A DNA stretch of 64,000 nt from a virus (IMGVR_UViG_3300028833_003520); one strand, 5' to 3'. Shown: positions 13,056 to 33,193, numbered from the stretch's first letter. Numbers and translations are program-made. Notes: generated from the sequence alone by a model not told the origin.

Positions 13056-13130
13056 TGGTGTGCTTGAGGGGACTCGAACCCCTGGCTCTCTGATTAAAAG
13101 TCAGATACTCTACCACTGAGTTACAAGCAC
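13056..13130 (-). tRNA. tRNA-Lys(UUU)
   Basis: Full cloverleaf: GTGCTTG/CAAGCAC acceptor, TCTGA-CTTTTAA-TCAGA anticodon arm, TTCGAGT T-loop, encoded CCA. Confidence 0.95.
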
Positions 13131-13137
13131 ATATAAA

Positions 13138-13238
13138 TGGAGCACCGAGCAGGATTTGAACCTACATCTTCCGATATTCTCGGCTGTTTTACTGAATTGA
13201 GAGTTAGATATCATTACTCAATATTAAACTATCGGTGC
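13138..13238 (-). ncRNA. tRNA-like RNA with enlarged D-loop and 5-nt anticodon loop
   Basis: Perfect GCACCGA/TCGGTGC acceptor + CCA, GTAGG-TTCAAAT-CCTGC T-arm; ~28-nt hairpin insert in D-loop; CCGA-GAATA-TCGG anticodon arm. Confidence 0.75.
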
Positions 13239-13241
13239 GTA

Positions 13242-13316
13242 TGGCTGAGGTTGGCGGATTCGAACCGCCGAATGCAGGAGTCAAAGACCTGTGCCTTACC
13301 GCTTGGCAAAACCTCA
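13242..13316 (-). tRNA. tRNA-Gln(UUG)
   Basis: TGAGGTT/AACCTCA acceptor, CTTTGAC anticodon loop, GGCGG-TTCGAAT-CCGCC T-arm, CCA. Confidence 0.92.
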
Positions 13317-17870: not shown

Positions 17871-17901
17871 AAAAAAAGGGTAGAGTTTTCCAACTCTACC
17901 C
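17871..17901 (-). terminator. Intrinsic terminator after HIRAN gene
   Basis: GGGTAGAGTT/AACTCTACCC stem + U-tract on -. Confidence 0.85.
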
Positions 17902-17915
17902 TGAAAGGCTCTGGC

Positions 17916-18356
17916 TTATACTACGTTCTCGTTACGGTTCATATTGAAGACGTAAGCGTATGCACGAGAATCATAAGCGATTGCAGGGATTCCCAATCTC
18001 TTTGCAAGAGATTTCGCATAATGATACTGCTTCTGTGAAGGCTTCTTGATAGTATCAAGGACCACGTAGTAGTTGTTCTTATAGTGACGAATGAATCCAG
18101 TCATTTGCTCATCCAAATCGGGATTAGCAAGTTCACTTTTAGGAATCCAGCCAATAATTTTACGAGAATTATGCTCGACTACCTTAATGGCATATTCGTC
18201 TTCATCTGTTTCGGGATTATGATAGATTGTGTCCATCAAATCGGTTGTAATAATGCCACCGCACATAGACGTAGCAAAATTGCGGAGTATATCCTGACGG
18301 TTTTCACCATCTTCGTTTGCGAAGGTAACACCTGCGAGTTTTAGTTCTTTTATCAT
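17916..18356 (-). CDS. HIRAN-domain protein
   Basis: LAGVTF..RQ..NPxxDxxAIKV...IGWIP motifs. Confidence 0.7.
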   Translation of the reverse strand: MIKELKLAGVTFANEDGENRQDILRNFATSMCGGIITTDLMDTIYHNPETDEDEYAIKVVEHNSRKIIGWIPKSELANPDLDEQMTGFIRHYKNNYYVVLDTIKKPSQKQYHYAKSLAKRLGIPAIAYDSRAYAYVFNMNRNENVV

Positions 18357-18560
18357 AGTCGTAATTCCTTTCTTAAAAATTCTATAATGTATTTTTGCTT
18401 CTTATAAACTCGAAAAAAGAGACAAAGAAGTATCAAAGATGCTATTGGAACCGTTAGGTTCTCCTGACAGAACTGTAAACAGTTCTGTCCCCTTTTCATT
18501 AAGGCAAAGTAAGTTCTTTTGTAAAAGAATCTACAGCACTGCAGATAACGCAATGAAAAT

Positions 18561-18596
18561 AAAAAAAAAAAAAAGGCTACCATTACGGTAGCCTTA
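18561..18596 (-). terminator. Intrinsic terminator
   Basis: AAGGCTACC/GGTAGCCTT stem + long U-tract on -. Confidence 0.9.
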
Positions 18597-18615
18597 AAGG
18601 TGTATTCGGAATGAA

Positions 18616-19056
18616 TTAGTAGTCAGCACTACAGTCTTCTGTGTAGTTTTCTACAGATTCTTCTTCAGTATCAGTTGTTTCTGTGTCAGAATCGTCTTCT
18701 GCAGAGTCACAGCGATGAGCACAGTTACTACAATCGCAGTCACATTCAGATTCGAGTTCATCCATATCTATAGGTGGATTGCGAACTTCTTCAGGAAGTG
18801 CCATATACTCTTCCTTCATCTGTCTATAAGCAGAAGCGTCCATCCAAGATGTCTGTCTGGCATCATTCTTAGCCCAGCCTACTTCCTTATCCTTGTAGAA
18901 GAATGTAGCACCTTCTTTTGTGTATTCGATACGGCACATCTTGCGGATGATTGTATTTACAGTACCCCAAGAATCACCTTCGAATTCGTATTTTTCTGCC
19001 TGCTTTGTCTGAATAGCAGAGGGAACGAGTTTAGCGAGATTAGACTTGATAGACAT
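18616..19056 (-). CDS. Hypothetical protein with acidic Cys-rich C-terminus
   Basis: AAAGGAG RBS, monocistronic cassette. Confidence 0.8.
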   Translation of the reverse strand: MSIKSNLAKLVPSAIQTKQAEKYEFEGDSWGTVNTIIRKMCRIEYTKEGATFFYKDKEVGWAKNDARQTSWMDASAYRQMKEEYMALPEEVRNPPIDMDELESECDCDCSNCAHRCDSAEDDSDTETTDTEEESVENYTEDCSADY

Positions 19057-19220
19057 AAGTGTGTCTCCTTTCTATGAATAAAATAATGTATTTTATGAGT
19101 AGAACCCAACCAAGAGTTTCTATCTCAAAGATATCCTGAGCAACCAGGCTGGTTGCCCATTGTCTGACTGCCAAGCGGTCAGACTTTTTGTGTAATCACT
19201 ATGATTATAAAGGGGATATG

Positions 19221-19253
19221 AAAAAAGAAAATGGTGATACAAAAGTATCACCA
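19221..19253 (-). terminator. Intrinsic terminator
   Basis: TGGTGATAC/GTATCACCA stem + U-tract on -. Confidence 0.8.
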
Positions 19254-19556
19254 CTTCTCTTCTTTGATGAGGTCGTACACAATAGGTAAGGCATTGAACT
19301 GCTTAACGAAATCTTCAACGGAAGTAGCCGTAATAGGAGCGTAGCCCTCATTCTTCGGCTTTACTTTAATCTTCCATAAGACATTGGTAATTTCGATACC
19401 TGTTTCTTCAAGATAGTTCTTGATGCCGTCTTCGATACCAAACCAGCACTTACCGTCATCGGTAGTGCTTGTTATGAGTAACTGTGTTGCTTCTTTTGTG
19501 AAGCCTCTCTTCTGAAAGAACTCGTCTTTCTTTGGATATACAAAGCGTGTAACCAT
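19248..19556 (-). CDS. Hypothetical protein
   Basis: AAAGGAG RBS. Confidence 0.75.
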   Translation of the reverse strand: MVTRFVYPKKDEFFQKRGFTKEATQLLITSTTDDGKCWFGIEDGIKNYLEETGIEITNVLWKIKVKPKNEGYAPITATSVEDFVKQFNALPIVYDLIKEEKW

Positions 19557-19566
19557 ATTATTGTGT

Positions 19567-19722
19567 TCACTCCTTTATTTCGTTCTTATTGAAGTTAGGA
19601 ACAACGGTGGGAACTTCGGCTTCAGGCTGAGGTTCAACAACAGGTTCCTCTGCATACATTTCTTCACAGCAGATATCTGTGAAAGGGTCGTAGCAATCAC
19701 CCTGCCAATTGTAGTTAGACAT
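19567..19722 (-). CDS. Small acidic peptide (51 aa, MSNYNWQGDC...)
   Basis: Not in ORF track; GGAGGT RBS, fills the gap. Confidence 0.65.
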   Translation of the reverse strand: MSNYNWQGDCYDPFTDICCEEMYAEEPVVEPQPEAEVPTVVPNFNKNEIKE

Positions 19723-19724
19723 AG

Positions 19725-20201
19725 TTATACCTCCGAAGTGTTCTTGTATTCTGAGATGAACATACCTTCATAATCGTAGATTACGAAATGTGTGGTGGTT
19801 ACACGAAGAATACGAGGATAGTAGCCTAAGTATGACCTGAATTCGTCACACATAAGTTCCTTTTCGTATCTGAATTCTTCGTTAGTTTCGTCGAAGTTAT
19901 ACTTTGCGTATAACGCAGCAATCTTCTTAGGAAACTCTTTCTTGTATGTTGCAACCTTTGCAACTGTAACAGGGTATTCGTTGAGTATCTTAACGATGCC
20001 GTCAAGTGTATCATCTCCGCCTGCGTCAAACGGTGCACCATAGATAAGGAAGAATTCTACATCTTCTTCTTTAGTGATGGTGTTTACCATCTGTGAGCAA
20101 GGTTCGATAGTGAGTGTGTCGTAGCCTGCTTCGACCACGATTGAGTTCCAGTTATTATTGATGAACTGCTTCTTCAGTTCTTCTCTTGTGAAGGTTTCCA
20201 T
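19725..20201 (-). CDS. Hypothetical protein
   Basis: AAAGGAG RBS. Confidence 0.75.
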   Translation of the reverse strand: METFTREELKKQFINNNWNSIVVEAGYDTLTIEPCSQMVNTITKEEDVEFFLIYGAPFDAGGDDTLDGIVKILNEYPVTVAKVATYKKEFPKKIAALYAKYNFDETNEEFRYEKELMCDEFRSYLGYYPRILRVTTTHFVIYDYEGMFISEYKNTSEV

Positions 20202-20224
20202 AGTAATTCTCCTTTCTTAAGGTG

Positions 20225-20593
20225 TTAATCATCAGTGTTATAGTTGTAATTAGGATTTCTGGCATAGCCGTTTATTGCATATAAACGCTTATCAGAAATG
20301 GAACAATTGTTATTTGACGGTTCTTTGTAAGTGATTACATTGTATTTACCGTCATCAGTTTTTTCGCTGATTACGAAATAGTGCGTTTCGTCAACAGCAA
20401 TGTTGATGGTTCCATCGGTGTTGTAGTACGCAAGATAAGGATTGAGGAATGTTTCTCTGATTGTATTGACGAATACACCTCTTTCCTTAATACGAATGAT
20501 TGCGTGCTTTGTTAAGCGGTAGTGATATGCAATATCGTATAAGACTTCCTGTGGTACTAACTGACCGTGTTTCTCAAATAAAGTATCTCCCAT
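20225..20593 (-). CDS. DUF4258-like protein
   Basis: LTKHAIIRIKERG..NVITY pattern; start MGDTL behind GGAAGGA. Confidence 0.55.
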   Translation of the reverse strand: MGDTLFEKHGQLVPQEVLYDIAYHYRLTKHAIIRIKERGVFVNTIRETFLNPYLAYYNTDGTINIAVDETHYFVISEKTDDGKYNVITYKEPSNNNCSISDKRLYAINGYARNPNYNYNTDD

Positions 20594-20722
20594 ATTCGTT
20601 TCCTTCCTATTCATAATGTATTAGAGAATGAAATCTCAAAAATGATTAGGGGCGAACGAACAGCGAGCCAATTTACACGCTTAGAAGGATGATAAGCGTG
20701 CTGTTAATCAGACTTAATTCTT

Positions 20723-20961
20723 AAAAAAAAAAAGCAGACATCTCATACGAGACATCTGCTTCTTTCATAGAAAGGCGGTTTATAGCAATGATAGACGGTG
20801 ATTATGGACATTCTGTCACGTCGCGGCAAAATCCTTATGCCGCCGTGTAAGTTTTCCGACTGTAAGGAGACATATTATGTCAATACTTTTCGATGCGTCG
20901 TTATGGTCAGACATTGGTATTTTCGAGGAACTCGTGTCTATCAGCCACGTAACCTATTTGT
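20723..20961 (-). ncRNA. Candidate sRNA A (two anti-RBS seeds + terminator)
   Basis: Terminator 20723-20760 (G.U pairs only on -); seeds 20763-20782 and 20864-20881; hairpin element 20969-20985 upstream. Confidence 0.6.
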
Positions 20962-21016
20962 TTTATGGATTTCCGTGCAGGAAATTCGTTGGGTAGGGGA
21001 TGTTAACAGTGCAAGT

Positions 21017-21092
21017 AAAAAGAAGAAAGGGCGAGTACGAATGTACTTGCCCGTCTTGAAGAATATATATACAAAGAGAACTCTTATAGATT
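21017..21092 (-). ncRNA. Candidate sRNA B
   Basis: GGGCGAGTAC/GTACTTGCCC stem + U-tract; hairpin element 21101-21115 upstream; no ORF. Confidence 0.5.
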
Positions 21093-21149
21093 CTCCATCT
21101 CTTTCGTGCAGAAAGTTGCTTTTATATCTAAATGGAAAGGTTTTATCCG

Positions 21150-21230
21150 AAAAAAAAAAGATAGCAACGGGCGGAGGAAACCCATTGCTATCTGAAAGGA
21201 GGATGTTTATGAAGAGTTTATTTCAAAAGT
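21150..21230 (-). ncRNA. Candidate sRNA C (CCUCCUUUC seed)
   Basis: Terminator 21150-21192; anti-SD immediately 5' of it; hairpin element 21237-21255 upstream. Confidence 0.6.
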
Positions 21231-21287
21231 TTTCTGGGCGAGTGGGCAATGAGCCAATTTAAGAAAGATATTTAAGTGTAATAGGAG

Positions 21288-21359
21288 AAAAAAAATAGGC
21301 ACTCCCCGAAGGGAATGCCTATCTTAAAATACATTATAGAAAGGAGGAATACTAAACTT
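21288..21359 (-). ncRNA. Candidate sRNA D (CCUCCUUUCUAUAAUGUAUUUUA seed)
   Basis: UUCG-capped terminator 21288-21322 on -; seed 21325-21347; hairpin element 21367-21383 upstream. Confidence 0.65.
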
Positions 21360-21464
21360 CTTATGGATTTTTGAACAGAAAATTGAGGTAAGGGTTTAAC
21401 GTCATCTGTAAAGATGACTTTCTTTTGGGCGTAACCAAAAGAAAACGGAAAGAACTTCACGCAG

Positions 21465-21562
21465 AAAAAAAAACAGGTATGCCGAATGGCATACCTGCGA
21501 AACACACATAAATTTTTCGTTAAGAATAGTCTAAGCACTACGAGCATTGTGTTTACACAGGT
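21465..21562 (-). ncRNA. Candidate sRNA E
   Basis: CAGGTATGCC/GGCATACCTG terminator + U-tract; hairpin element 21570-21586 upstream; no anti-SD. Confidence 0.5.
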
Positions 21563-21612
21563 CTTATGGATTTCCGTACAGGAAATACGTTTTAAGGAAC
21601 GGCAGTTTTGTG

Positions 21613-21641
21613 TTGACATTCTCCATATATGGCGTTATACT
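21613..21641 (+). promoter_or_regulatory. Sigma-A promoter of PcfJ-like gene
   Basis: TTGACA-17-TATACT. Confidence 0.8.
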
Positions 21642-21686
21642 GATTTTAAGTTGAAAAACTCTGTTTTTGTAAGGAGATTTATAGAT

Positions 21687-23966
21687 ATGAAACAATCAGT
21701 TTCTATTCCACTTAAGTCATTAAGGGAAGATAAAAAGTCAACCTTCACAGTAGATACTGTGAACGGAATTTGTGGTTGTGCCGATTGTAGAAAAACATAT
21801 CGAGCAACAAAAGAAGATACTTGGAGAGGTAATCGTTATAAGATGGACACACCGTGTCCTGATTGTGGTGGCAAGCAACTTTCAAGTTCACTTCTTTCTG
21901 ACCTTCCGATTGATACAACTGCGAAGACAAGAGCAAAGAAGAAGATGGCAATTAAGAAGGATATTAAGCAAGATGTATATCGTAGCGATGATGATAAGTT
22001 ACAGAGAGTAACGACCGTTAGTACCTACGATGTATTTACTATTTACCCTTCTAATCGTATGCATTCACAGACAATTGAATGTACATTCACGGCTGATATG
22101 GATGCAGGTACTATGCAGTGTTCTTATATGGATGTTACTGATAAGGAGCATCCTGTTCCGATTGGTATGTATGACCTCGATTCACAGTATGCGAACGGTT
22201 ACAATCAGTTCAATGGTCTTGAAGTAATGAATGCGAACTCGATTAGAAAGTATCAGACGAAAGGTGGTTACGAAAGGTCTATTGTACCTTTTGTAAATTC
22301 ACTGAAATATACATCTGATTCTTTTGGTAATAATGTCGTGTCGAAGAACTTGGCAACAACGATAGCAAATGAGTTTGATATTGAAGTTGACCAAGGTAAT
22401 GAGTCTCGTAGGATGGCAATGGTTGACTTTATGGTACGATATCCAGGTTTGAGAGATATGGTGCTTGAGCACGTAAACGAGAACCTTTCGTACAAGCAGG
22501 ATTTGACCGACCGAGAGAAGAGATTAGAGAGAACTAAGGAAGTCAACAAGTATGTTAAGCAAATGTCTAATGTTGACCAAAAACTCCTTGCTGACTTGAG
22601 ACAGTGTAAGACTGGTGATGAAGCCTATAGTTATCTCAGTCGAGTTACTTTCGGTAAGGAAGCAGACGGTTCAAAGATTAAGGATTCTTTCATCAGTCGT
22701 GTTAACATTGATGAGGCTTCCTTTGACGGTTATGGTATTCATAAGAAGATAAGGAAGAATTTTAATCAGAATCCTCTTGGAACTGCTAATTTCGTATATA
22801 CGACAATCGGTAAGATTGGCTTTAGAGATGTAAACCATCTTTATCAGATGCTTGACCTTATGGAAAGTCAGAAGACATCTGATGACGATTGGTATCATAA
22901 TAAGAAGGCATTCAACGGTGATACCATTACTCCGATTGAGAAGAAGTCTCAGTTACGTTTTATTAAGACTTATGCGAAGTCGCACACACCTGGTCAGACA
23001 ATCAAGGATTGGTATGAGAATAAAGGTAATTATGAGATGTTCAGCGATTGTGCAGATATGTACAATAAGATGTGTGAAGTTGGATATGTCTGTGCGACGC
23101 AAGCAGAATGCGATATAGCGTCTGCTGAAGATGCCAAGCGTAAGATTAAAGGTTTGATGGACGAAGGTATGGATAAAGATGCTATCGTCGAAGCAGTCGA
23201 GCCTTACTGGGCAGTTAATGGTGATACATCCGTAGCAACAACATTGGTCGAAAAGACTATCGAAGATATCAAGGTCAATGGTGTTGAAGAGAAGGTTGCC
23301 TTCTATGGTAGAGATGGTAAGCCGTTGATTTCGAATCGTACTCCGCAGGAAATTCACGATGAGTTGTCCAGGAAGAATCGTACTATTCAGGAACTCTCTG
23401 GTGGTCCGAAGAGAGCAGGATATACGAAGGAGATTAGAGATAGGTTTAATCTTGATATTGGCGATTATAAGTTCAGAATACCGAAGAATACTTATGAGGT
23501 AATCAGAACTGGTGAGCAGATGCAGATTTGTGTCGGTGGTTCAGGCTACTGTAATTCAGTACAGAGAGGAGACCCTCACTGTATTATCGTGACTATGGCT
23601 GATAAGGCTGGTCAGAAGGTAGGCTGTATTGAGATTAACAACGATAATATCAAGCAGTTTAAGTCGCCTCGTAACCACGCAATCTGCGATGAAAGATGCG
23701 GTAAAGGAGCCGTAGATGCAGCGAAGGAGTTTATCGAGAAAGCGAAATTAAATGACTCTTGTGAAGATGTACGTCATTTCTGTGATGAAAATTATGCACC
23801 ATATGGTGATGGAGATTTCACTCAGGCTCATCTTCCTTCGAATCCTTATCCGAGTCCTCGTGTTATGATGGCATATTTCAAGGGTGATTTAGGGAAGAAT
23901 AACCGCAAATTACCTGAAGTGCCTGTAGCACAAGCACAGGCTGAATCACAACAGTCTTTGGAGTAA
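21687..23966 (+). CDS. PcfJ-like domain protein with N-terminal Zn ribbon (759 aa)
   Basis: EIHDELS..FRIPKNTYEVIRTGEQMQICVG..Y..IEI..IKQFK..RN PcfJ-type C-terminus; CxxC pairs; start MKQSV behind AAGGAG and promoter. Confidence 0.75.
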   Translation: MKQSVSIPLKSLREDKKSTFTVDTVNGICGCADCRKTYRATKEDTWRGNRYKMDTPCPDCGGKQLSSSLLSDLPIDTTAKTRAKKKMAIKKDIKQDVYRSDDDKLQRVTTVSTYDVFTIYPSNRMHSQTIECTFTADMDAGTMQCSYMDVTDKEHPVPIGMYDLDSQYANGYNQFNGLEVMNANSIRKYQTKGGYERSIVPFVNSLKYTSDSFGNNVVSKNLATTIANEFDIEVDQGNESRRMAMVDFMVRYPGLRDMVLEHVNENLSYKQDLTDREKRLERTKEVNKYVKQMSNVDQKLLADLRQCKTGDEAYSYLSRVTFGKEADGSKIKDSFISRVNIDEASFDGYGIHKKIRKNFNQNPLGTANFVYTTIGKIGFRDVNHLYQMLDLMESQKTSDDDWYHNKKAFNGDTITPIEKKSQLRFIKTYAKSHTPGQTIKDWYENKGNYEMFSDCADMYNKMCEVGYVCATQAECDIASAEDAKRKIKGLMDEGMDKDAIVEAVEPYWAVNGDTSVATTLVEKTIEDIKVNGVEEKVAFYGRDGKPLISNRTPQEIHDELSRKNRTIQELSGGPKRAGYTKEIRDRFNLDIGDYKFRIPKNTYEVIRTGEQMQICVGGSGYCNSVQRGDPHCIIVTMADKAGQKVGCIEINNDNIKQFKSPRNHAICDERCGKGAVDAAKEFIEKAKLNDSCEDVRHFCDENYAPYGDGDFTQAHLPSNPYPSPRVMMAYFKGDLGKNNRKLPEVPVAQAQAESQQSLE

Positions 23967-23990
23967 TAAGGTAACGAAATTACGAAATAA

Positions 23991-24018
23991 AAATAGCCTG
24001 CTTTATGCAGGCTATTTC
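23991..24018. terminator. Bidirectional terminator between convergent genes
   Basis: AAATAGCCTGC/GCAGGCTATTT. Confidence 0.85.
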
Positions 24019-24042
24019 TTTGTAAGATTGTTTATAGAACGA

Positions 24043-24402
24043 TTAGCGAGGTTTATTTTGCCAATAGTTGTAGTTCTCGATGGCTCTTATGATTTCATAA
24101 GGGTCGAGGGAGTGTTCTGTGCCGCTAACAATACGTCTTCTGCCGATTTCATCGGTGAAGTGCTGACAGCACTTGATAGCCGTTCCTTGTAACATACCCT
24201 CGATTTTGTTATTGTATGCGTCAAACCAAAATATTTGGTTGGGTCGAACAAGGAAACTTTCCCAAGGTTTATCGGGAGATGTCATAAAATCGAGAGGTGG
24301 GACCATAATCTCAATCCACTCACCTGAATCGTTCTCAATCAAGTAACAAAGTTCCATCGGAACTCTGATAGATATGTGTGCATCTTTTTGTCCTCTGTAC
24401 AT
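24043..24402 (-). CDS. Hypothetical protein
   Basis: Start MYRGQ behind AAAGGGGAG. Confidence 0.65.
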   Translation of the reverse strand: MYRGQKDAHISIRVPMELCYLIENDSGEWIEIMVPPLDFMTSPDKPWESFLVRPNQIFWFDAYNNKIEGMLQGTAIKCCQHFTDEIGRRRIVSGTEHSLDPYEIIRAIENYNYWQNKPR

Positions 24403-24489
24403 ATAGACTCCCCTTTCTTTAATAGGCTCGTTATTCATTTTTGGTACGTATGCCGAGAAAAATTTTCTACGGTTAGTATAGCACAAATA

Positions 24490-26560
24490 TACTGATAAAT
24501 GAACAGAAAGTTTTGCTTTTTGGTAGTTGAGCGATAGCGTCGATGAGACTCGTGCTGGTCTGTTGCTGGTAAGCAGGCAGTTTCCTGCCTGGCTAAAACT
24601 TGGATACTGTTGCGGATACTTTGATGCAGTTTTTGCAAAGGCAAGTGCTGCGAAGTTGCTGCGGTTGGCAGCGAAATATTAAGTTATGTTCCGCCTGTCC
24701 CTGAATGTGATAAATCCCTGAGCATTGGAAGTAGCCCTTTCTTCTTGACGGGGTTGGATTTAGGCGTAAAGTTGCAGAAGGGTTCACACCTCACTTTTTT
24801 CTTGCTTCCGCCGTTACCCGAAGGTCGAGTTCCTCTTCTTTACCGTTTACCCAGAAGGTTCCCAGAACAGCCTCTCCTCTCCAGTTAGACTGATGGTTCT
24901 GATTCTCTCAAGCGTCGCAAAATTCTATAACAATATAGACCAAAAACGGAAAACGCATTCCATCAAATCGTAAATTTGTGTGTAAGATTTCTTAAAGGAA
25001 GACATAGACTAAAGAGACAACGAATTCGAGGGACTTGTCGTGAGAATGAGTGGCTTCTGCCTGATAAGAAATGAAGCCTTTCTTAAAGAAGAATATTCTT
25101 TGCCCTTAAAATGTGGTGATTTTTGGGAGAAACCACCCTTTTTGAAAGTATTTTAAGGGAAAAGGCAAGTGTAACGAAAATTGTATAAGTTTCGTGACAA
25201 AGAATTATTGTCTAACTACGATTTTATCGTGACTTTAGGAATGCCGCCGAGATGCAATGTGGTTAATCTATATAGTTTTCAGCATTTTGACAACCTTAAA
25301 TGTGATTACTAAAAGCAACGAAATACGGTGCAACCAATTTCATTGATTAAACTTGTTGGTCTTACTCTATGATTTCATCATTGTTGTGCCCTGCGTTTGC
25401 GGAGCGTAGAACCAAATTTCGCAGGAAATGAAGGGTTCTATTTTGTCTAAAGATGTTGAAGGTGAGGGTTTCTCACTTTGCGATAAAGATAGCAATAGTG
25501 GGGTTGAGCCAAGACATCGTTTAACTGTTGTTCTGATTACGATTTAATCGTCCGTTGCAAGAGCCAAGAGGGTCGAGGGAATTGGTATTCCCTAATTAGT
25601 CTTATCTTGTTTTCATTATTCGTGACAATTTCACGATGAACGACATCCAACCGCCTTGACGCGGTAAAGGATGGAAGTCTAATTTGTTGAACCTTTCGTG
25701 ATTTAGAAAGGTCTATATTTTTCTGCGAAGACACTAACAAATTTTGGAGCAACTTCTGCAACGATACACGCAGTTACAGAAGGGGAAACGAAAAAAAAAA
25801 GATTAAGGATGTTGACAAGTTTATCTTGGTGACCTCACAAGAAAAAAAATAGGAATATACAGACTTTAGTGTCTGCACATTCCTATAGTAAAAAAAAAAA
25901 ATGGACATCTCGATTAAGAGATATCCATCTTTTCTCCGAAAAGGAGCATAACAGAAAAAACATCACAAGTGATTTTGAGTCGGGTACACCGACTTGTTGG
26001 TGCTCCTCAAACCGTAGAGGTTTGAATTTTCGTGAGAAAATGGAGCCGCCAGGAATTGCGACATTAAGGAGCAAATCCAAGCGAAAATCCGATGAATATA
26101 AAGTGGTTAAAAGATAAGCGATGTGCTGGTGGTGGAAGTAGTGAATCAAAAATTCGCTGTAGAGGATTTTGAGGCTTAATAAAGCCGATAGCATTACAAA
26201 GAATAATGCGAAAAAAAAGGTAAAAGGATTTACGTGTCCAGCACTTTATGTGCTGAAAAGGAGATGAAAGTTAAGTATGTTTTGTTGAGTATAAACGAAG
26301 CAAAAATAATTAACTTTTAGCGGAATGACAAAGTAGCACGGACCAAGAGGTTGTGAATTGTGTCCGAGCGTAAATATAATGTCAGTATGTTAATCCAAAG
26401 GCTTACTGCCGTATTGTTATTTTAAGGCTGATAGCCGATTAAACTACAAGATTAGTTTGCAAAGTTTTGTTGTAAGTGTTCGACAGTTTATCTGTCGCTT
26501 CGCAAGAGTTCATCGTCTGCTCATTAAACTTTTTTTGTTAGTTTTTCACCAATGTTTAAT
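24490..26560. other. ~2-kb non-coding, hairpin-rich region (candidate origin / regulatory hub)
   Basis: No credible ORF; many stem-loops; tandem minus-strand terminators at 25842-25928. Confidence 0.5.
25890..25970 (-). ncRNA. Candidate sRNA F (antisense to RBS of gene 29237)
   Basis: Terminator 25890-25928; seed 25940-25956; CACAAGT box and AGTCGG-GTACA-CCGACT hairpin upstream. Confidence 0.65.
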
Positions 26561-26586
26561 GGTGTTAAGAAGGTAACAGAATAAAG

Positions 26587-26622
26587 AAAAAAAAAAGAAG
26601 GACAGTCAAATGACTGTCCTTC
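26587..26622 (-). terminator. ssb terminator
   Basis: GAAGGACAGTCA/TGACTGTCCTTC + U-tract. Confidence 0.9.
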
Positions 26623-26649
26623 ATAAGTTTATTCAATTGTAGAGAGCGA

Positions 26650-27060
26650 TTAGCCCTTTGCAGGAGCCTCTGCAGCCTTAGCAGCCTCTTCAGCCTTACG
26701 CTGAGCACGAGCCTCTGTAACTGCCTTTGTCTCAAGCAACTCGATAGAGTCGATTCTGCAAACCTGTCCATAGACCTGCTCGCCAGAAGTCTTGTCTGTG
26801 TAGTTGTTGCTCTTGAGGTGATAGCCGATTGCTACGAGGTCGCCTTCGTGCATAAGTCCGTAAACGCCGTCCTGCTTATCTGCAGGTACGAAACCTTCGA
26901 GACTTACGAACTCAGTTGTCGTGTTGCCCTGAGCGTCCTTGTAGTTATTGGGAACTGCGAGTGTTACCATCATCTTGCGAGAACCGTCGCCATTCTGAAA
27001 TGCTGCAACAGCCTTTGAAAGTCTTCCGATAACGATTCCTGAATTCTGTGCGTTTGCCAT
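26650..27060 (-). CDS. ssb: Single-stranded DNA-binding protein (no acidic C-terminal tip)
   Basis: OB-fold SSB motifs IGRL..TLAV..T.FV...GDLV.I...L.SNNY; AAAGGTGG RBS. Confidence 0.8.
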   Translation of the reverse strand: MANAQNSGIVIGRLSKAVAAFQNGDGSRKMMVTLAVPNNYKDAQGNTTTEFVSLEGFVPADKQDGVYGLMHEGDLVAIGYHLKSNNYTDKTSGEQVYGQVCRIDSIELLETKAVTEARAQRKAEEAAKAAEAPAKG

Positions 27061-27388
27061 AGTCAAACCACCTTTCTCCCTTTAGGGACATTAGAATAAT
27101 TTTTGAGTTATACTCACAAGTATTGTCTATATCCGTGCAGGATATTTATTTGAGAGTGGATTCGTTCCACTTATTGCGTCAGCAATTACTTATGAGAGAA
27201 AACTCACTTATCTTCCGAAGACAGTCGAACAGACTGGCTCATTGGAAAAACATATAAACTTTATCATAAATGAGGAGAAACCGTCAAGAAAAAGGTATCT
27301 ATATTAGTATATATACTATAATTATTATGGTATTTTTATGTGTATTAAAAATGTAATAAAAAATACTTATTAAATGTTGAAAAAAGTG

Positions 27389-27417
27389 TTGACATCTGCT
27401 TTTTTATCCCTTATAAT
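27389..27417 (+). promoter_or_regulatory. Consensus sigma-A promoter of partition operon
   Basis: TTGACA-17-TATAAT after a very AT-rich tract. Confidence 0.9.
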
Positions 27418-27438
27418 TACGATGTAATCATTAAAAAA

Positions 27439-27454
27439 TGCTCATATATGAGCA
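27439..27454. promoter_or_regulatory. Palindromic operator TGCTCATATATGAGCA
   Basis: Perfect 16-bp palindrome; variants at 21620, 27261, 44474, 52483, 61687, 61716, 62336, all in or beside promoters. Confidence 0.7.
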
Positions 27455-27471
27455 GAAAGGAGTACAAGTAA

Positions 27472-27933
27472 ATGGCAAATGAGAAAGCAGATGGCACACC
27501 GAAGAGATTAGGTAAAAACGGCAAGCCTTTAGGTCGTCCTACCTATGCCTCACAGGGAAAGAAGAAAAAGTCTGAAACTCAGACAACTTGGAAAATTGAT
27601 GTTCCGAATGGCGATATTTCAACGAATGAGTTCTTGAGGATTCAGGATAATCCATCACTTTCTGTAAGAACGATTATTCGAGAATATATCGAGAGAAATG
27701 GAATGGTCGATGCAACTTGTCAGCCTGTTGAGTACCGTCCTGTAGGGCGTAACGCAAGTGCAAAGAGGGAGCAAGCCGAAGCAGCGAACAGTCCCGAACC
27801 AAAATTCGAAGCAGAGAATGAACCAATTATTCAGAGAGAAACAGTTAGAACACCGATTTCTCAACCCACCGATGAAGATGATGACGATGCTATCGTTGCA
27901 AATATCTTCAGCAAAAATAAGAACAAGTCATAA
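27472..27933 (+). CDS. Probable partition adaptor / DNA-binding protein (ParR-like)
   Basis: Small gene co-transcribed with parM; basic N-terminus, acidic tail. Confidence 0.55.
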   Translation: MANEKADGTPKRLGKNGKPLGRPTYASQGKKKKSETQTTWKIDVPNGDISTNEFLRIQDNPSLSVRTIIREYIERNGMVDATCQPVEYRPVGRNASAKREQAEAANSPEPKFEAENEPIIQRETVRTPISQPTDEDDDDAIVANIFSKNKNKS

Positions 27934-27947
27934 AGGAGACAAAAATT

Positions 27948-29165
27948 ATGAAATTTGTAGTTGCAGGACTTGATGTAGGCAACGGTTATGTAAAGGGTGC
28001 CATCAAAGTCGATAATGAAGTAGAAAATGTATTTATTCCTTCTTGTGCTATGAAGGTAAAGAACACAGGTAACATTCTTCCTGTTGAGGGTGAGTCAGCA
28101 ATCAAGGAAGTCGTAACCAATATTTTTGATTATCTTGATGTTTCTTTTGATTCGAAGATGATTGAAGACGGAAGACGCAGATTTGTAGGTACTCGTGCAG
28201 TATCTATGGGTGACTACGGAATGGACGTTTTCAAGATTTCTGGAAACATCAGTAAGGCAAAGCAGGAACTCTCTCCTGTGCTTGTATTTACAAGCATTGC
28301 AGGTGTTGTACTCAAGAAAGAGTTCGAGAAGACAGGCAGACTTCCTGAAGAGATTGAATGCCACGTTTCATTGGCAGTCGCTCTTCCGATTGATGAGTAT
28401 AAGGATTATAGAGCAGAATATAAGGCATCTTATAAGAACACTTCTCACGTTGTAAGCATCAATAACTTCTTAACACCTGTTCGTATTAAGATTGTTATTG
28501 ATAACGTAATCGTCGGAGCAGAAGGTGCTTCAGCACAGTATGCGATTACTGAGTACGGAGAACCGTTGTACAATGCTATGCTTAAGACGGCTCGCAAGTA
28601 CGGTGCAGAGTTGAAAGGACTTGAAGCAAGGCATCTTGCCAATATCGTTAATACCGTAGGTATTGACATTGGCGAAGGAACAGTAAACTTTCCTGTATTC
28701 ACGAATGGTCAGTTTAATACTGATATTTCAACAACTGTGAATATGGGATATGGTACAGTTCTTCAGGAGTCTTTGGCGATGCTCAGAAAGTCAGGTCACG
28801 TTTTTAAGGGTGGTCGTAAGGAACTCGCAGAGTACCTTAAGAACCCTCCTGCAGAGGACGATTACTTCTACGAAGATTATAAGGAAGTAGTTCGTATCGT
28901 GGATGACCAGGCAGACACATTGGTTAACGAAATCGTTAATCATCTGACAGATATCCTCGGCTCGAATGTGCAGGTAGCATACGTCTATGGCGGTGGTGCC
29001 GCACCTATGAGAGAAATCCTTTACCCGAAACTCATTGAGGCTACAAGACCTTATGCTGGTGTTAAAGCCGATTATCCGATTCTCTATCTCGGTAATGAGT
29101 ATTCTCAGAACTTGAATAGAGAGGGTCTCTACATTATGGCAGACTCCTATAAGCCCGTTAAGTAA
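27948..29165 (+). CDS. parM: ParM/StbA family actin-like partition ATPase
   Basis: GLDVGNGYVK, AEG, IDIGEGTVN and YGGGA actin-fold motifs. Confidence 0.9.
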   Translation: MKFVVAGLDVGNGYVKGAIKVDNEVENVFIPSCAMKVKNTGNILPVEGESAIKEVVTNIFDYLDVSFDSKMIEDGRRRFVGTRAVSMGDYGMDVFKISGNISKAKQELSPVLVFTSIAGVVLKKEFEKTGRLPEEIECHVSLAVALPIDEYKDYRAEYKASYKNTSHVVSINNFLTPVRIKIVIDNVIVGAEGASAQYAITEYGEPLYNAMLKTARKYGAELKGLEARHLANIVNTVGIDIGEGTVNFPVFTNGQFNTDISTTVNMGYGTVLQESLAMLRKSGHVFKGGRKELAEYLKNPPAEDDYFYEDYKEVVRIVDDQADTLVNEIVNHLTDILGSNVQVAYVYGGGAAPMREILYPKLIEATRPYAGVKADYPILYLGNEYSQNLNREGLYIMADSYKPVK

Positions 29166-29236
29166 TTTACGAGAGGTAAGGTCGAGTCTTTAAGGCTCGA
29201 CCATTCCTCAAGGCTTTTTGAAAGGAGCGTAACAGA

Positions 29237-29740
29237 ATGTATGTTGGAGATGATGGTCGTGTCGAGATTTTGCATATAAAATCTGATGATACGTTTTTAG
29301 TAAAATTTAGCGATTTACCTTTCGATTTGTTTCCTGAGTTTAAGGAAAATGTAGCACGGTTTGAAGATAGTCAATTTGCTATTTTATCGAAAGAGCAAAT
29401 GCGTCTTATTTGCGGAGCAATCAGTCTTTGTAAAACAATAGGTGTAAGCGAAGCAAATAATGTTATATCTGAATGTCGAGTGAATGCTATGCGTGAGCGA
29501 GATGATGAGGATAGGAAACTCGCAAAAGAATTTGCTTTAGAGCGAGATAGAGCCGAATGGCAGCGATTAAATGCTATTTTCGGTAAGAATGAAGAAGCAA
29601 AGCCTGAACAGAAAACCGAAGAAACGGTTGTTACAGAGAATAGAGAATTTCCCTATGGAGAGATTAAGGTGAATCCTTATGATGAACCTCCGAAAATCAA
29701 TCCATACGGCGATAATTTTTCGATATTACCAAGCCAATAA
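29237..29740 (+). CDS. Hypothetical protein
   Basis: AAAGGAG RBS. Confidence 0.75.
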   Translation: MYVGDDGRVEILHIKSDDTFLVKFSDLPFDLFPEFKENVARFEDSQFAILSKEQMRLICGAISLCKTIGVSEANNVISECRVNAMRERDDEDRKLAKEFALERDRAEWQRLNAIFGKNEEAKPEQKTEETVVTENREFPYGEIKVNPYDEPPKINPYGDNFSILPSQ

Positions 29741-29784
29741 TCTATTTGCCAAATACTGTACAAGGATGATAGCCGTGATAGATA

Positions 29785-30560
29785 TGTCACGGCTATCATT
29801 CAAATCAGGGCAAGTAAACAATGAAATGAGGACACAAAAGATGAAGCGTAATTATGATGAAGATGAGCGTTATTTGTCTGAAGCAAAGAATGAAACGAAT
29901 GTTACTATTTCTGATGCTGATACTTATGACGAAGATGAGAATGATGAAGAGTCTGAATCCCAAAAGCCACAAACGAAATGGCAGCGTTTCTGTGAGTGGT
30001 GCAGATGGCACGAATTAGGTATTACATTGACTATAGTAGCCATTGTAGTACCGACGCTGTGGTTTCTCTGTACGGTAGATTACATAGCAGAAGTGCCTAT
30101 TTCTAATAAGGGTTGGGAACGAACTGCAAAACTCCAGACTTGGGGTATGGCACAACACGTTACCACAAACCCGAATAGCGAAATGAATGTGGTGGATAGT
30201 TGGACCGAAAGTCACGTTGTAAGTACGGGTAAGACTGCTTATACAGTTTCTACGACATATTATGTATATGAGCAGGAAGAATGGATAACAGTCGAGGAAT
30301 TTCCGACTTCAGGAAGGAATGATGAACCGTACTGGGGTATAGATGATGCTCAGACATTTGCACAGGTTGATAATCCCACGATAGGCGATTGCAGATATGA
30401 TTTCTCAGATGAGCATTATTACGTGACGGTAGGTGTAAGTTCACAATTACAGGAAATGCCATATGACAAGTGGCAACAGACGAATGTAGGTGATACAGTT
30501 GAAGTCACTTTTGGAAGTTATTTTGAGTATCTGTTTAATACAATAGGCGTTCGTAAGTAA
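29785..30560 (+). CDS. Single-pass membrane protein
   Basis: One TM after acidic N-terminus; start uncertain. Confidence 0.65.
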
Positions 30561-30964
30561 TGAATGGTGATTTCTATGTAGATTTTCATAATGAAGAAGA
30601 CCGAAAGCAAAGAGCGTATCAACAACAGGTTCCGAACGATGTAGGAGCATACATAGTTTGGATTGTTTGCCTCTTTGCTTTATCGGTTGTACTAATAATA
30701 CTCTATCTGACTTTAGGTGAATTTGTCGGTGAAATGATGGAGAAAAAAGAGCCGATAGGCTATGTAGTAACAATTGACCGTGATAACGGTATAGAACCCG
30801 AAACGTATGTAGCGACGGAACTGACATATACGCCAAGCGGATATGTAAAAATACGAGTGGAAGGCGTTACGGGTTATATTTACATTCCATATACTCAGAA
30901 TGTAAAAGTTGAAGAAGTTTACGATGAAACTTTTGAGACAAATTCGTTGACTTATGAGCAATAA
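30560..30964 (+). CDS. Single-pass membrane protein
   Basis: TAATG coupling, one TM. Confidence 0.7.
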   Translation: MNGDFYVDFHNEEDRKQRAYQQQVPNDVGAYIVWIVCLFALSVVLIILYLTLGEFVGEMMEKKEPIGYVVTIDRDNGIEPETYVATELTYTPSGYVKIRVEGVTGYIYIPYTQNVKVEEVYDETFETNSLTYEQ

Positions 30965-31061
30965 TTGCTTATTATAAGCGTGTCTTAAGGATGGATAGAG
31001 TCTTTAGCATAACGGATAATAAATCTCCCCTTTGCTTCGTCCGTTATGCGAAAAGCAAGAG

Positions 31062-31101
31062 AAAAAAAAATAAGTCCTCACTCAAATGAGTGGGGACTTA
31101 T
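31062..31101 (-). terminator. Terminator of RNase H operon
   Basis: TAAGTCCTCACTCA/TGAGTGGGGACTTA + U-tract on -. Confidence 0.8.
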
Positions 31102-31109
31102 TGCTTGGA

Positions 31110-31478
31110 TTAGTTATTTGTGCTTTTGAGCATAGTGATTATTCTGATAGGTGTCAGAATAAGCAAATATGCTGCGTCGTAAAGACCAACGATAATGATT
31201 ACCGCAACGATTTCAAATGCAATAAGTGCGGAGTTTACACTAACTGTAAATTCGTAGTTAAGCATTTCGGGAAGGTAGAGGACAATCAAGAGTATCGCCG
31301 TAGCGATACCGAAGATTATGTCGAATACTCTCCATATCTTCTTGGTCTTTTCACGCTTAACAGCAGGGTCAGTAACGACCTTTACTGTGTTGTAGCGAAC
31401 AGGGTTTTTTCTTTCAATGTACTTTCTATAAAGCACATTACCGAGAAAAACGCCGCAAATTACGCCAATCCACGTCAT
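31110..31478 (-). CDS. Membrane protein
   Basis: Three hydrophobic segments, GGAGGT RBS. Confidence 0.75.
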   Translation of the reverse strand: MTWIGVICGVFLGNVLYRKYIERKNPVRYNTVKVVTDPAVKREKTKKIWRVFDIIFGIATAILLIVLYLPEMLNYEFTVSVNSALIAFEIVAVIIIVGLYDAAYLLILTPIRIITMLKSTNN

Positions 31479-31480
31479 TG

Positions 31481-31888
31481 TTAGCCACCTCCTTTGTTAG
31501 CAAGGTATTCGTCGATAGTGTCGATAAAATTCTGAGGGTCATCGAAGAGGTTGTCTATCTCATTTTCGACATCTTCAGGTGCACAATTGTTGACGATGTT
31601 GAAGAGAATATATTTATAAATATTGTCAACATCGTATGTTTTGTAATGGTCTTTGAAACGGTTAGCGTCAATGTAGCATCTACCTTCTTTTGTAAATGCG
31701 TCAAGAACTTCGCTTAACAGATACCAAGTATCAAATACATACAGAGTGCCTGGTAAACCGCTTTCGTAACGTAAGACAACAATGTTGTCTGATAATTTCT
31801 CAATCTGAGAAATCTGATATTCTGTGAAAACGTGCTTTGTGATGCCTGGAATATCGGAAGGCATTGCTTCTTCTTTTACGAGTATCAT
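31481..31888 (-). CDS. Hypothetical protein
   Basis: Start MILVK behind AAAGGAG. Confidence 0.7.
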   Translation of the reverse strand: MILVKEEAMPSDIPGITKHVFTEYQISQIEKLSDNIVVLRYESGLPGTLYVFDTWYLLSEVLDAFTKEGRCYIDANRFKDHYKTYDVDNIYKYILFNIVNNCAPEDVENEIDNLFDDPQNFIDTIDEYLANKGGG

Positions 31889-31890
31889 AG

Positions 31891-32619
31891 TTAATTCTCC
31901 TTTATTTTGGATTCTGTAAGGCACATTACTTGATAAGCAGTAAGCGAAGTAATGTTATCCTCATATTCGTTGAGCATATTTTTCTGTTCGGTAGTCATAT
32001 CGGACAGATTGATGCTCTTCTTTGCTAAAGCGTCTGCAAGTTCGTTGAACTTGTCGCCTGTGTGTGACTTAATGTGTTCAAAAGTGAAATCACAAAGGTC
32101 TTTGCAATCATCTGCGAAGTCTTGATAACACTTGGTAAAGACTTCGTTAGCCTTCCATTTGTGAGTCGCCCACATTTCAATGCCCATATAGTCGTAGCAA
32201 ATCTTGCAAGACTTGAGGGCGTTCTTGATAGCATAGTTGAATGAAAATGTTGCGGCTTTGATTTCACCGAATACATTGCGAGATTTATGATGGTCGGCAG
32301 AGCCGTAGAAACCTTCGATAAACTCGCCGTTCTTGGTGATGACAATACCGAAGCCAACTCGTTCGGTGTCGGTGTTGTAGGAACCATCGACATAGATAAC
32401 AACATTATCAGTAGGGTTGATTTCCTTAGTAGTAAGGAGTTCAACCGTTGGTACACAGATTGAGTCGGTTGGTTCGGGTTCTTCGTAATAGTCATCAATC
32501 AGTGTTTGAATGATGGTGTTTACTTTGAGGTATTTATGTTGTTCTGAAGGGTTGGCAACCCTGAGTGCAAGGATGCCTCTTTGGGTAATTTCTTTAAGTT
32601 CGGATTTAGATATGTCCAT
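31891..32619 (-). CDS. rnhA: Ribonuclease HI with N-terminal extension
   Basis: YVDGSYN, RNVFGEI, YDYMGI..W..KWK, HIKSHTG..NELADALAK catalytic motifs. Confidence 0.9.
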   Translation of the reverse strand: MDISKSELKEITQRGILALRVANPSEQHKYLKVNTIIQTLIDDYYEEPEPTDSICVPTVELLTTKEINPTDNVVIYVDGSYNTDTERVGFGIVITKNGEFIEGFYGSADHHKSRNVFGEIKAATFSFNYAIKNALKSCKICYDYMGIEMWATHKWKANEVFTKCYQDFADDCKDLCDFTFEHIKSHTGDKFNELADALAKKSINLSDMTTEQKNMLNEYEDNITSLTAYQVMCLTESKIKEN

Positions 32620-33020
32620 TATGTATTCTCCTTTTTTCTAAAGTAGAGTACCCAATATGGGTAACCGTTGTAGGCGTTACACGACTGCTCCATACCCGTT
32701 AAGATTACTTCTTCTCCGAACAGGGCAGAGAGGAATTTGCTTATCTGTTCAGGTGGGTACATTATGTAAAACTGGCAAGTGCCACATATTTCTTCCCATA
32801 ATGTACTGTAGTTAGGGTATTGCTGCATCAGTCGGTCAGACCACGCTTGATTATCACTCTGACGGTAGCCGTTCTTGTAAACGCAATAGTCAGAATAAGA
32901 ATATGGATATTCTTCGGGAAGACGAATAGAAGGTTTGCCAGATATGGTTATATTGTAGTGAACAATCTGACCTTCTTCGTCAACATAGGCTCTACGAAAT
33001 TCTCTGTATGCTGAATCCAT
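32619..33020 (-). CDS. Hypothetical protein
   Basis: Start MDSAY behind AAAAGGAG. Confidence 0.7.
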   Translation of the reverse strand: MDSAYREFRRAYVDEEGQIVHYNITISGKPSIRLPEEYPYSYSDYCVYKNGYRQSDNQAWSDRLMQQYPNYSTLWEEICGTCQFYIMYPPEQISKFLSALFGEEVILTGMEQSCNAYNGYPYWVLYFRKKENT

Positions 33021-33096
33021 TTGATGTATTCTCCTTTTCATTGGTAAATGGCTCTATAGTCAATTAAGTTTTAGAGCCTTGTATTATTATTTATAT

Positions 33097-33127
33097 CAAA
33101 AGTGGGCTGAATGACCGAACAGGTCAT
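33097..33127 (-). promoter_or_regulatory. CAAAAGT-N7-hairpin(GAACA) element heading the RNase H operon
   Basis: CAAAAGT GGGCTGA ATGACC GAACA GGTCAT; same geometry as copies at 21.2, 21.6, 26.0 and 27.1 kb. Confidence 0.65.
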
Positions 33128-33193
33128 TTATTGCCTTTTTATAGTGCAATATTACCAAATACGTTATGCAAAATAACGGTTCTATAAAATATG

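Follow-up and report, generated by a model that had tools for sequence, protein, structure and literature searches.

What starts transcription of the minus-strand genes in a plasmid region where no host-type promoter can be recognized in front of them? The question is raised by a 64,000-nt stretch of DNA catalogued as viral (IMGVR_UViG_3300028833_003520; hereafter the window, meaning the whole stretch), which belongs to a large MOB_L-type conjugative plasmid-like element seen solely in rumen and gut metagenomes. Between 18.4 and 33.1 kb, the minus-strand transcription units of this element are headed by copies of a short motif, a hairpin with a neighboring box, located on the + strand, which is the template for these units. 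We propose that the copies are clade-specific template-strand hairpin promoters resembling those of coliphage N4, with a structure that would be read by a polymerase other than the sigma-A holoenzyme. We hold this reading, drawn from sequence comparison, with about equal parts of confidence and doubt.

Architecture of the motif

The region contains 11 hairpin copies, all on the + strand. Their stems are 5-10 bp long and differ in sequence from copy to copy, and nine of them enclose a GNNCA loop (GTGCA and GAACA three times each, GTACA twice, GGGCA once). The remaining two have the variant loops GTTA and AGGCT. An earlier reading of the same DNA, made without database searches and called here the sequence-only reading, had listed these hairpins and noted that the stems vary while the GNNCA loop is kept; every copy that it named was recovered on the + strand, and the loop is retained to the extent just given. 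A T is found 14 nt 5' of the loop G in nine of the 10 pentaloop copies (local T frequency 0.38, binomial P ~0.001), where the sequence-only reading had counted eight, and this T lies 8 nt from the base of a 6-bp stem. Of the copies, 8-9 have a clear TCA(A/C)A(A/G)(A/G)T box, which is absent at 20969, 21101, and 21367. On the RNA-like strand, the conserved short tract is AYYTKTGA, 7-8 nt past the stem base. Spacing between box and loop is not rigid (15 nt at 20651, 13 nt at 18434). In total, ~35 nt are common to the copies, with a mean column identity of 56%. The copies are as follows.

18432-18462, + strand: copy a; box ATCAAAGAT; hairpin 18447-18462, GGAACC/GTTA/GGTTCT, with a 4-nt variant loop; heads minus-strand gene 18356-17916, which ends at terminator 17902-17877
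19125-19156, + strand: copy b; box TCAAAGAT; hairpin 19140-19156, GCAACC/AGGCT/GGTTGC, with a variant loop; 24.2 bits with covariance model R1; heads gene 19056-18616
20637-20669, + strand: copy c, a paralogue of copy f; box CAAAAAT; hairpin 20651-20669, GGCGAAC/GAACA/GCGAGCC, with internal G.A/A.G mismatches; heads operon 20614-19248
20954-20989, + strand: copy d; box unclear; hairpin 20965-20989, ATGGATTTCC/GTGCA/GGAAATTCGT; heads a unit free of open reading frames (ORFs) that runs to terminator 20765-20725
21085-21115, + strand: copy e; hairpin 21101-21115, CTTTC/GTGCA/GAAAG; heads a mini-unit to terminator 21056-21028
21223-21255, + strand: copy f; box TCAAAAGT; hairpin 21237-21255, GGCGAGT/GGGCA/ATGAGCC, with a G.T pair and tandem G.A; mini-unit to terminator 21193-21159
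21352-21384, + strand: copy g; hairpin 21366-21384, GATTTTT/GAACA/GAAAATT, with two G.T pairs; mini-unit to terminator 21325-21292
21555-21586, + strand: copy h; box ACACAGGT; hairpin 21570-21586, ATTTCC/GTACA/GGAAAT; top R1 match, 34.2 bits; mini-unit to terminator 21498-21473
25963-25996, + strand: copy j; box TCACAAGT; hairpin 25976-25996, TGAGTCGG/GTACA/CCGACTTG; ORF-free unit to tandem terminators 25935-25895 and 25886-25849; identical in the related element L003
27114-27145, + strand: copy k; box TCACAAGT; hairpin 27129-27145, ATATCC/GTGCA/GGATAT; ~70 nt upstream of ssb
33096-33130, + strand: copy l; box TCAAAAGT; hairpin 33108-33130, TGAATGACC/GAACA/GGTCATTTA; 76 nt upstream of gene 33041-32619

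The number of copies and their polarity depart strongly from expectation. Within the 4,980 nt of non-coding DNA at 18.3-33.9 kb, GNNCA hairpins of at least 5 bp occur nine times on the + strand and not once on the minus strand, with 0.44 +/- 0.66 expected and a maximum of 3 over 1000 runs of a first-order Markov simulation. The sequence-only reading had proposed a covariance-model scan. The model used here, R1, was trained on the copies from the window and from the related element L001, and its matches in the 64-kb window are the training copies alone, all on the + strand at 19.1-33.1 kb; the minus strand of the window gives no R1 match below E = 0.2. Rfam, run over the whole window at its gathering threshold, reports three tRNAs only and has no match for the motif.

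Position between terminators and genes

In minus-strand orientation, a strong intrinsic terminator directly precedes every copy, and a gene start or the next terminator follows 35-250 nt further on, in agreement with the sequence-only claim that the motif heads the minus-strand units. The genes headed by copies are those beginning at 18356, 19056, and 20614, together with ssb and the lead gene of the RNase H operon. From 20.7 to 21.6 kb, five terminators alternate with five copies over 860 nt, and a sixth ORF-free unit with a copy occupies 25.85-26.0 kb. Terminator-like sites in the region number 35, where 10.3 are expected. In the mini-units, the hairpin lies only ~90 nt from the upstream terminator, and this interval has no promoter. 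Transcription between consecutive terminators requires a promoter of its own, and the hairpin with its box is the sole conserved feature there.

No sigma-A promoter (TTGACA, 16-18 nt, TATAAT; or TRTGnTATAAT) is present upstream of the minus-strand units. In contrast, the + strand genes carry sigma-A promoters that match the consensus at 11-12 of 12 positions. Two of these are given below with a minus-strand site that had been named as a stemless copy of the motif.

21613-21641, + strand: sigma-A promoter TTGACA-17-TATACT (11/12), which drives the PcfJ-like gene and has the palindrome CCATATATGG in its spacer
27389-27417, + strand: sigma-A promoter TTGACA-17-TATAAT (12/12, perfect) of the actin-like partition operon
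24476-24505, - strand: the "stemless copy", TGTGcTATACT, ahead of gene 24402-24043; a good sigma-A promoter of the extended -10 type

The last of these, which the sequence-only reading had cited at 24482-24505 when it considered a two-box alternative-sigma promoter, is passed over by R1 and is probably an ordinary promoter outside the motif family, to judge from its sequence.

Other assignments of the motif were tried and rejected. The box does not serve as a -35 element (TTGAnA), since most copies have no -10 at 16-18 nt, and neither spacing nor sequence fits the loop as a -35 or ECF-type element. An operator was rejected because the half-sites differ between copies; half-sites that vary in this way rule out a single dimeric DNA-binding protein.

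Stem turnover in related elements

A search with the PcfJ-like protein led to the syntenic elements L001 and L002 (54% identity, bovine metagenomes) and to L003 (97%). A search with SSB added three further lineages at 65-70% identity (L086-L091, L092, and L093). In every lineage (window, L001, L086, L092, and L093), a hairpin is found at the same template-strand place upstream of ssb, and the stems are mostly different. The window has ATATCC/GTGCA/GGATAT, L001 has GAAGTAT/GTGAA/ATACTTC, and L086 has GCATTGT/GTGGA/ACAATGC; L092 combines the L086 stem with the loop GGATA, and L093 (GCAATGT/ATTTT/ACATTGC) displays a compensatory double change relative to L086. In L003, the box and the stem of the ssb copy are one base further apart. 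At the head of the RNase H operon, the window has ATGACC/GAACA/GGTCAT, compared with TGGCTTAT/GTGAA/ATAAGCCA in L001. Entirely different stems at orthologous sites argue for recognition by structure.

The intergenic gaps ahead of minus-strand genes in L001 contain at least nine hairpins of this kind, and L001 also has a comparable terminator-separated array. Its loops have the form G-N-N-N-A, with three GTGAA, two GGGAA, and single instances of GAATA, GTATA, and GTCCA. At loop position 4, all nine GNNCA copies of the window have C, compared with mostly A in L001. Judged from these two sets of sequences, the 5' G and the 3' A of the loop are general and position 4 is lineage-specific, which is consistent with co-evolution of the loop and a dedicated reader. 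In ~80 distant relatives (~40% ALP identity), the 1.15 Mb surrounding the ALP genes contain no copy of the motif, which is in this sense clade-specific.

Many copies are accompanied by a second short hairpin, 2-20 nt to the 3' side on the + strand (18466-18489, 19162-19184, 21401-21418, 26007-26025, and 27158-27175). The second hairpin of L086 and L092, ATTCTC/G-N-A/GAGAAT, has an N4-like triloop; GNA triloops occur solely there.

Strand preference and the transferred strand

The sequence-only reading had described G.T pairs and tandem GA mismatches as features that form on the + strand, and the terminators as folding mostly on the minus strand. Folding calculations bear out both descriptions. 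Under DNA parameters, 10 of the 11 window copies are more stable on the + strand, by 0.1-1 kcal/mol, and under RNA parameters the summed energies are -79 kcal/mol for the + strand vs -61 kcal/mol for the minus strand. The template strand also folds better in seven of nine L001 copies. The minus-strand terminators of the region have the opposite folding bias, and base composition is therefore not the cause. The strand preference is real but modest.

Whether the preferred strand is also the one transferred in conjugation (the T-strand) is a separate matter. The sequence-only reading took the + strand to be the incoming T-strand. The origin of transfer (oriT) was not located; the sole relaxase seen is of MobL type and is encoded on the + strand at ~72 kb. 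[quoted passage not shown] By analogy, the minus strand may be the T-strand here, so that the hairpins would not lie on it, which disfavors the assignment of the + strand. In the other direction, the 33-kb minus-strand run points at a ~6-kb ORF-poor island just before the window start, a geometry expected of a conjugative leading region if oriT is located there. A template-strand hairpin needs no T-strand; N4 extrudes its hairpin from supercoiled duplex (PMC4496689).

Three independent assemblies (the end of L094/L097, L098, and L099) break within ~50 nt after a 128-aa gene, at ~71.6-71.8 kb. All fall in a gap of 162 nt, located two genes before the MobL relaxase gene, and could reflect a repeat, strain variation, or an oriT-like structure.

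A candidate hairpin promoter and its reader

Position and stem turnover strongly suggest that the motif functions as a promoter. The proposed promoter would have two parts. One is a short hairpin of the template (+) strand, in which the stem may have any sequence and the pentaloop has G at its 5' end and A at its 3' end; the other is the AYYTKTGA tract of the RNA-like strand, which is the probable site of transcription start. The sequence-only reading had proposed +1 at the A opposite the conserved T. Together, they would turn on a minus-strand regulon of "early/establishment-like" character in a ~243-kb MobL-type conjugative megaplasmid, comprising small unknown genes, ssb, the RNase H operon, and the tandem terminator-bounded non-coding mini-units. 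The hairpin might be presented on single-stranded DNA (ssDNA) or, as in N4, be extruded from supercoiled duplex and stabilized by SSB. Its reader would most likely belong to the element itself, as a dedicated polymerase or specificity factor, and not be the host sigma-A holoenzyme.

With respect to such a reader, the window encodes no gp50-like or T7-like single-subunit polymerase, its giant 3,517-aa ORF being an adhesin. A DxDGD regular expression applied to the long ORFs of all relative loci examined identified no RNA polymerase. One 1,339-aa protein contains DEDGD but is weakly TrbL/VirB6-like (protein atlas; the Pfam-bearing cluster is ninth, with a score of 0.89 and TrbL on 14% of its members). 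A more far-reaching version, which we regard as speculative and unlikely, would make the megaplasmid a conjugative counterpart of N4. A putative two-barrel RNA polymerase of its own would be sent with the DNA through the type IV secretion channel and would start at the hairpins on incoming or freshly supercoiled DNA, expressing ssb, RNase H, dozens of small establishment or anti-defense genes, and small RNAs independently of host sigma factors. The motif is short and easily mutated, and its stems provide built-in compensatory controls, so the promoter reading is directly testable.

Several points weigh against a hairpin promoter. As DNA the hairpins are weak, at -1 to -7 kcal/mol. The copies were picked as hairpins, which makes pair-count covariation statistics circular, and these were not used as evidence; the comparison of orthologous sites in five lineages is the sole independent covariation evidence. 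The box resembles the Firmicutes TRTG/-16 element, and the stemless site is a good extended -10 promoter, so that a sigma-A contribution is possible. The second hairpins at 18466, 19162, 21401, and 26007 have T-rich tails on the + strand, which would fit short + strand RNAs too.

Alternative explanations

In the model of the sequence-only reading, the motif would be an ssDNA promoter active only on an incoming + T-strand. Host RNA polymerase or a transferred enzyme would use it before the complementary strand is made, and zygotic expression of the leading-region genes would be transient. In favor of this model, the hairpin is on the template, the motif is confined to one strand, and the minus-strand run points at the ORF-poor island. 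A regulon with ssb and many small unknown genes has counterparts in the leading regions of F and ColIb (PMC11541004), and the N4 virion RNA polymerase is also active on ssDNA bearing its hairpin (PMC4496689). Against these stand the + strand MobL relaxase, which by the pLS20 analogy would give a minus T-strand, and the lack of a duplex -35/-10 for host polymerase. The ssDNA version is possible but currently disfavored by the MOB_L analogy, and we consider it unlikely. Quite unlikely, in our estimate, is an ordinary duplex promoter, either a weak extended -10 (TRTG) sigma-A type or a two-box alternative-sigma type, in which the palindrome is incidental or an operator. The box does read T(G/T)TGA on the coding strand, the stemless site has TGTGcTATACT, and the ssb heads of several lineages have TTGnnA followed 16-18 nt on by an A/T-rich hexamer. 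Past the box, resemblance to a -10 element slightly exceeds that of random intergenic DNA (mean best match 4.18 vs 3.66, P = 0.024), but the candidate hexamers are poor, keep no fixed register, and mostly lack the A and the T that TATAAT has at positions 2 and 6. A -35 element at a suitable distance is missing, and the host consensus on the + strand is plainly canonical. Moreover, the stems are complementary in all copies yet differ, which would be useless to a sigma factor and unreadable by one repressor.

The same hairpins could belong to a short + strand product, either a primer RNA of the ssi/sso kind, from which the complementary strand would be made, or a 50- to 65-nt small RNA running from the box through the hairpin to the second hairpin. 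The G.T pairs favor + polarity, the more so with RNA parameters, and primers of this polarity would be expected if the minus strand is the T-strand. The T-tailed hairpins after four copies would also suit such a product, as would an RSB-like site with TAGCGT on the + strand at 24447-24540 (PMC6395029). However, no consistent + strand promoter precedes the box, most window copies and those of L001 have no T-rich tails, and the RSB-like site is not conserved in L001. Primers or small RNAs also need not head every minus-strand unit between the terminator of its neighbor and a ribosome-binding site (RBS), and we find this explanation improbable. An element acting in the minus-strand transcripts (a 5' stabilizer, a processing site, or an antiterminator target), with promoters further upstream, seems very improbable. 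Hairpins in 5' leaders are common, and terminators at 17.9 and 10.3 kb that have no recognizable promoter after them hint at read-through control. Nevertheless, the hairpins fold worse on the minus strand, where the terminators fold better, and the ~90 nt between terminator and hairpin in the mini-units are promoter-free.

Genomic context

No near match for the window was obtained by a 16-kb megablast against phage and plasmid collections, by scans of genome contigs with the PcfJ-like protein and the class-A promoter pattern, or by one scan of viral contigs. An exact-protein look-up placed the leftmost genes of the window on a 243,445-bp contig. In the gene table of this contig, the ~6-kb island, which has almost no called genes, lies directly before the window start and downstream of the minus-strand run; beyond the island are a 341-aa gene and then Rce1-like and RecJ-like genes. 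The principal genes of the window and its flank are listed below, the entries beyond the window coming from exact-protein look-ups.

20-kb run, - strand: ~50 small genes and three tRNAs
21687-23966, + strand: PcfJ-like gene
26650-27061, - strand: SSB gene (ATG near 27061, stop 26650)
27948, + strand: actin-like partition operon
31.5-33.0 kb, - strand: RNase H operon (lead gene 33041-32619, RNase H 32619-31891)
33851-44404, + strand: TQ-ester/SpaA surface adhesin, 3,517 aa
52619, + strand: topoisomerase III-type gene
In the window: sortase gene
~72.1 kb, + strand, beyond the window: MobL-family relaxase, 747 aa, followed by a RecD2-type helicase
Downstream of the window: cell-wall hydrolase gene

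Ten regulon proteins compared with Pfam gave nothing informative. Within the small-gene run, a minus-strand cluster at 13056-13316 comprises tRNA-Lys(UUU), an odd 101-nt tRNA-Glu(CUC)-like gene, and tRNA-Gln(UUG). Strong minus-strand terminators at 17877-17902 and ~10.3 kb in the 20-kb run are followed directly by the next RBS, with no promoter between; they would be either ignored by the transcribing enzyme or overcome by antitermination. The gene after the PcfJ-like gene is separated from ssb by a ~2-kb stretch that is ORF-free, GC-richer, and highly structured (24490-26600 in the window; 12760-13780 in L001) and has no Rfam match.

The spacer-palindrome promoter of the PcfJ-like gene (CCATATATGG; full site TTGACAttctCCATATATGGcgTTATACT, 17-bp spacer) recurs at 9928-9958 in L001 and at 16912-16940 in L094, with the window site at 21613-21641. 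It is conserved near letter for letter between elements with 54% protein identity, a pattern that probably marks an operator-controlled regulon of + strand genes.

Comparison with known systems

Repeated structured elements are known from several conjugative and replicating plasmids. According to Masai and Arai 1997 as cited in PMC8708921, the stem-loop of Frpo is long and imperfect, and its folding restores -35/-10 hexamers in duplex form for sigma-70 RNA polymerase of the host. The present motif resembles Frpo and the ssi signals of F and ColIb-P9 in being a template-strand signal that heads ssb and small establishment-type genes on one strand. The + strand of the region, however, folds into a succession of short, separate hairpins, which have stems of 5-10 bp and no -35/-10 hexamers, and the analogy to Frpo drawn in the sequence-only reading does not extend to a long stem that rebuilds them.

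The pLS20-family (MOB_L) plasmids have EGeRS1 elements, GC-rich copies of 420-750 bp that are 62-95% identical and lie upstream of establishment operons (PMC8708921). The relaxase family is the same, structured elements are repeated before several operons in both cases, and no sigma-A promoter is detectable. The present element differs in its size of ~35 nt and in the conservation of only structure, loop, and short box. How establishment genes are switched on in conjugative plasmids of Gram-positive bacteria is largely unexplained, the upstream elements of pLS20 being without a detectable promoter (PMC8708921).

The single-strand origin ssoA consists of RSB (TTTATGCCGAGAAAA) and CS-6 (TAGCGT/A) in a large folded region (PMC6395029). 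An origin of this type was rejected for the motif, as no hairpin copy carries RSB or CS-6. Apart from the hairpins, the RSB-like sequence CGTATGCCGAGAAAA, a 13/15 match to the consensus, is found on the + strand of the window at 24447-24540, with TAGCGT beginning 88 nt after the match start. The pair is present in L003 and not in L001, and it may be due to chance or be the remnant of a single-strand origin.

To our knowledge, a hairpin promoter read by its shape has so far been proven for coliphage N4 alone. The early promoters P1-P3 of N4 are read by the injected virion RNA polymerase gp50 and consist of a template-strand hairpin with a 5-7 bp stem, in which the non-conserved bases vary as long as they pair, and a 3-nt loop with a sheared pair of 5' G and 3' A around a central purine; the polymerase reads the loop and a few stem bases and starts at a fixed 8 nt from the hairpin (PMC4496689). 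The hairpin is extruded from supercoiled duplex with help from SSB, and its template-strand form is more stable than the complement (PMC4496689). The comparison with N4 made in the sequence-only reading is apt. The present motif also has a template-strand hairpin, a variable but paired stem (5-10 bp here), loop ends of 5' G and 3' A, a conserved tract a short distance downstream with its T 8 nt from the base of a 6-bp stem, and a template form that is more stable than the complement (10 of 11 copies). SSB is part of the N4 system, and the ssb gene of the element lies behind one of the hairpins.

The differences are also clear. The loop has 5 nt (GNNCA in nine of 11 copies) and not 3, there is no GC-rich heptamer, and at least 11 copies are spread over 15 kb of a conjugative plasmid, compared with three at the end of a phage genome. 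The literature searched describes no hairpin promoter on a conjugative plasmid, and in it the promoter of YonO is still undefined (PMC5467207). If the proposed reading is true and tied to a putative two-barrel RNA polymerase of the element itself, the motif would define the missing promoter type of YonO-like enzymes (PMC5467207). Even apart from that tie, a hairpin promoter here would extend the N4 principle to a second natural case and, for the first time, to a plasmid.

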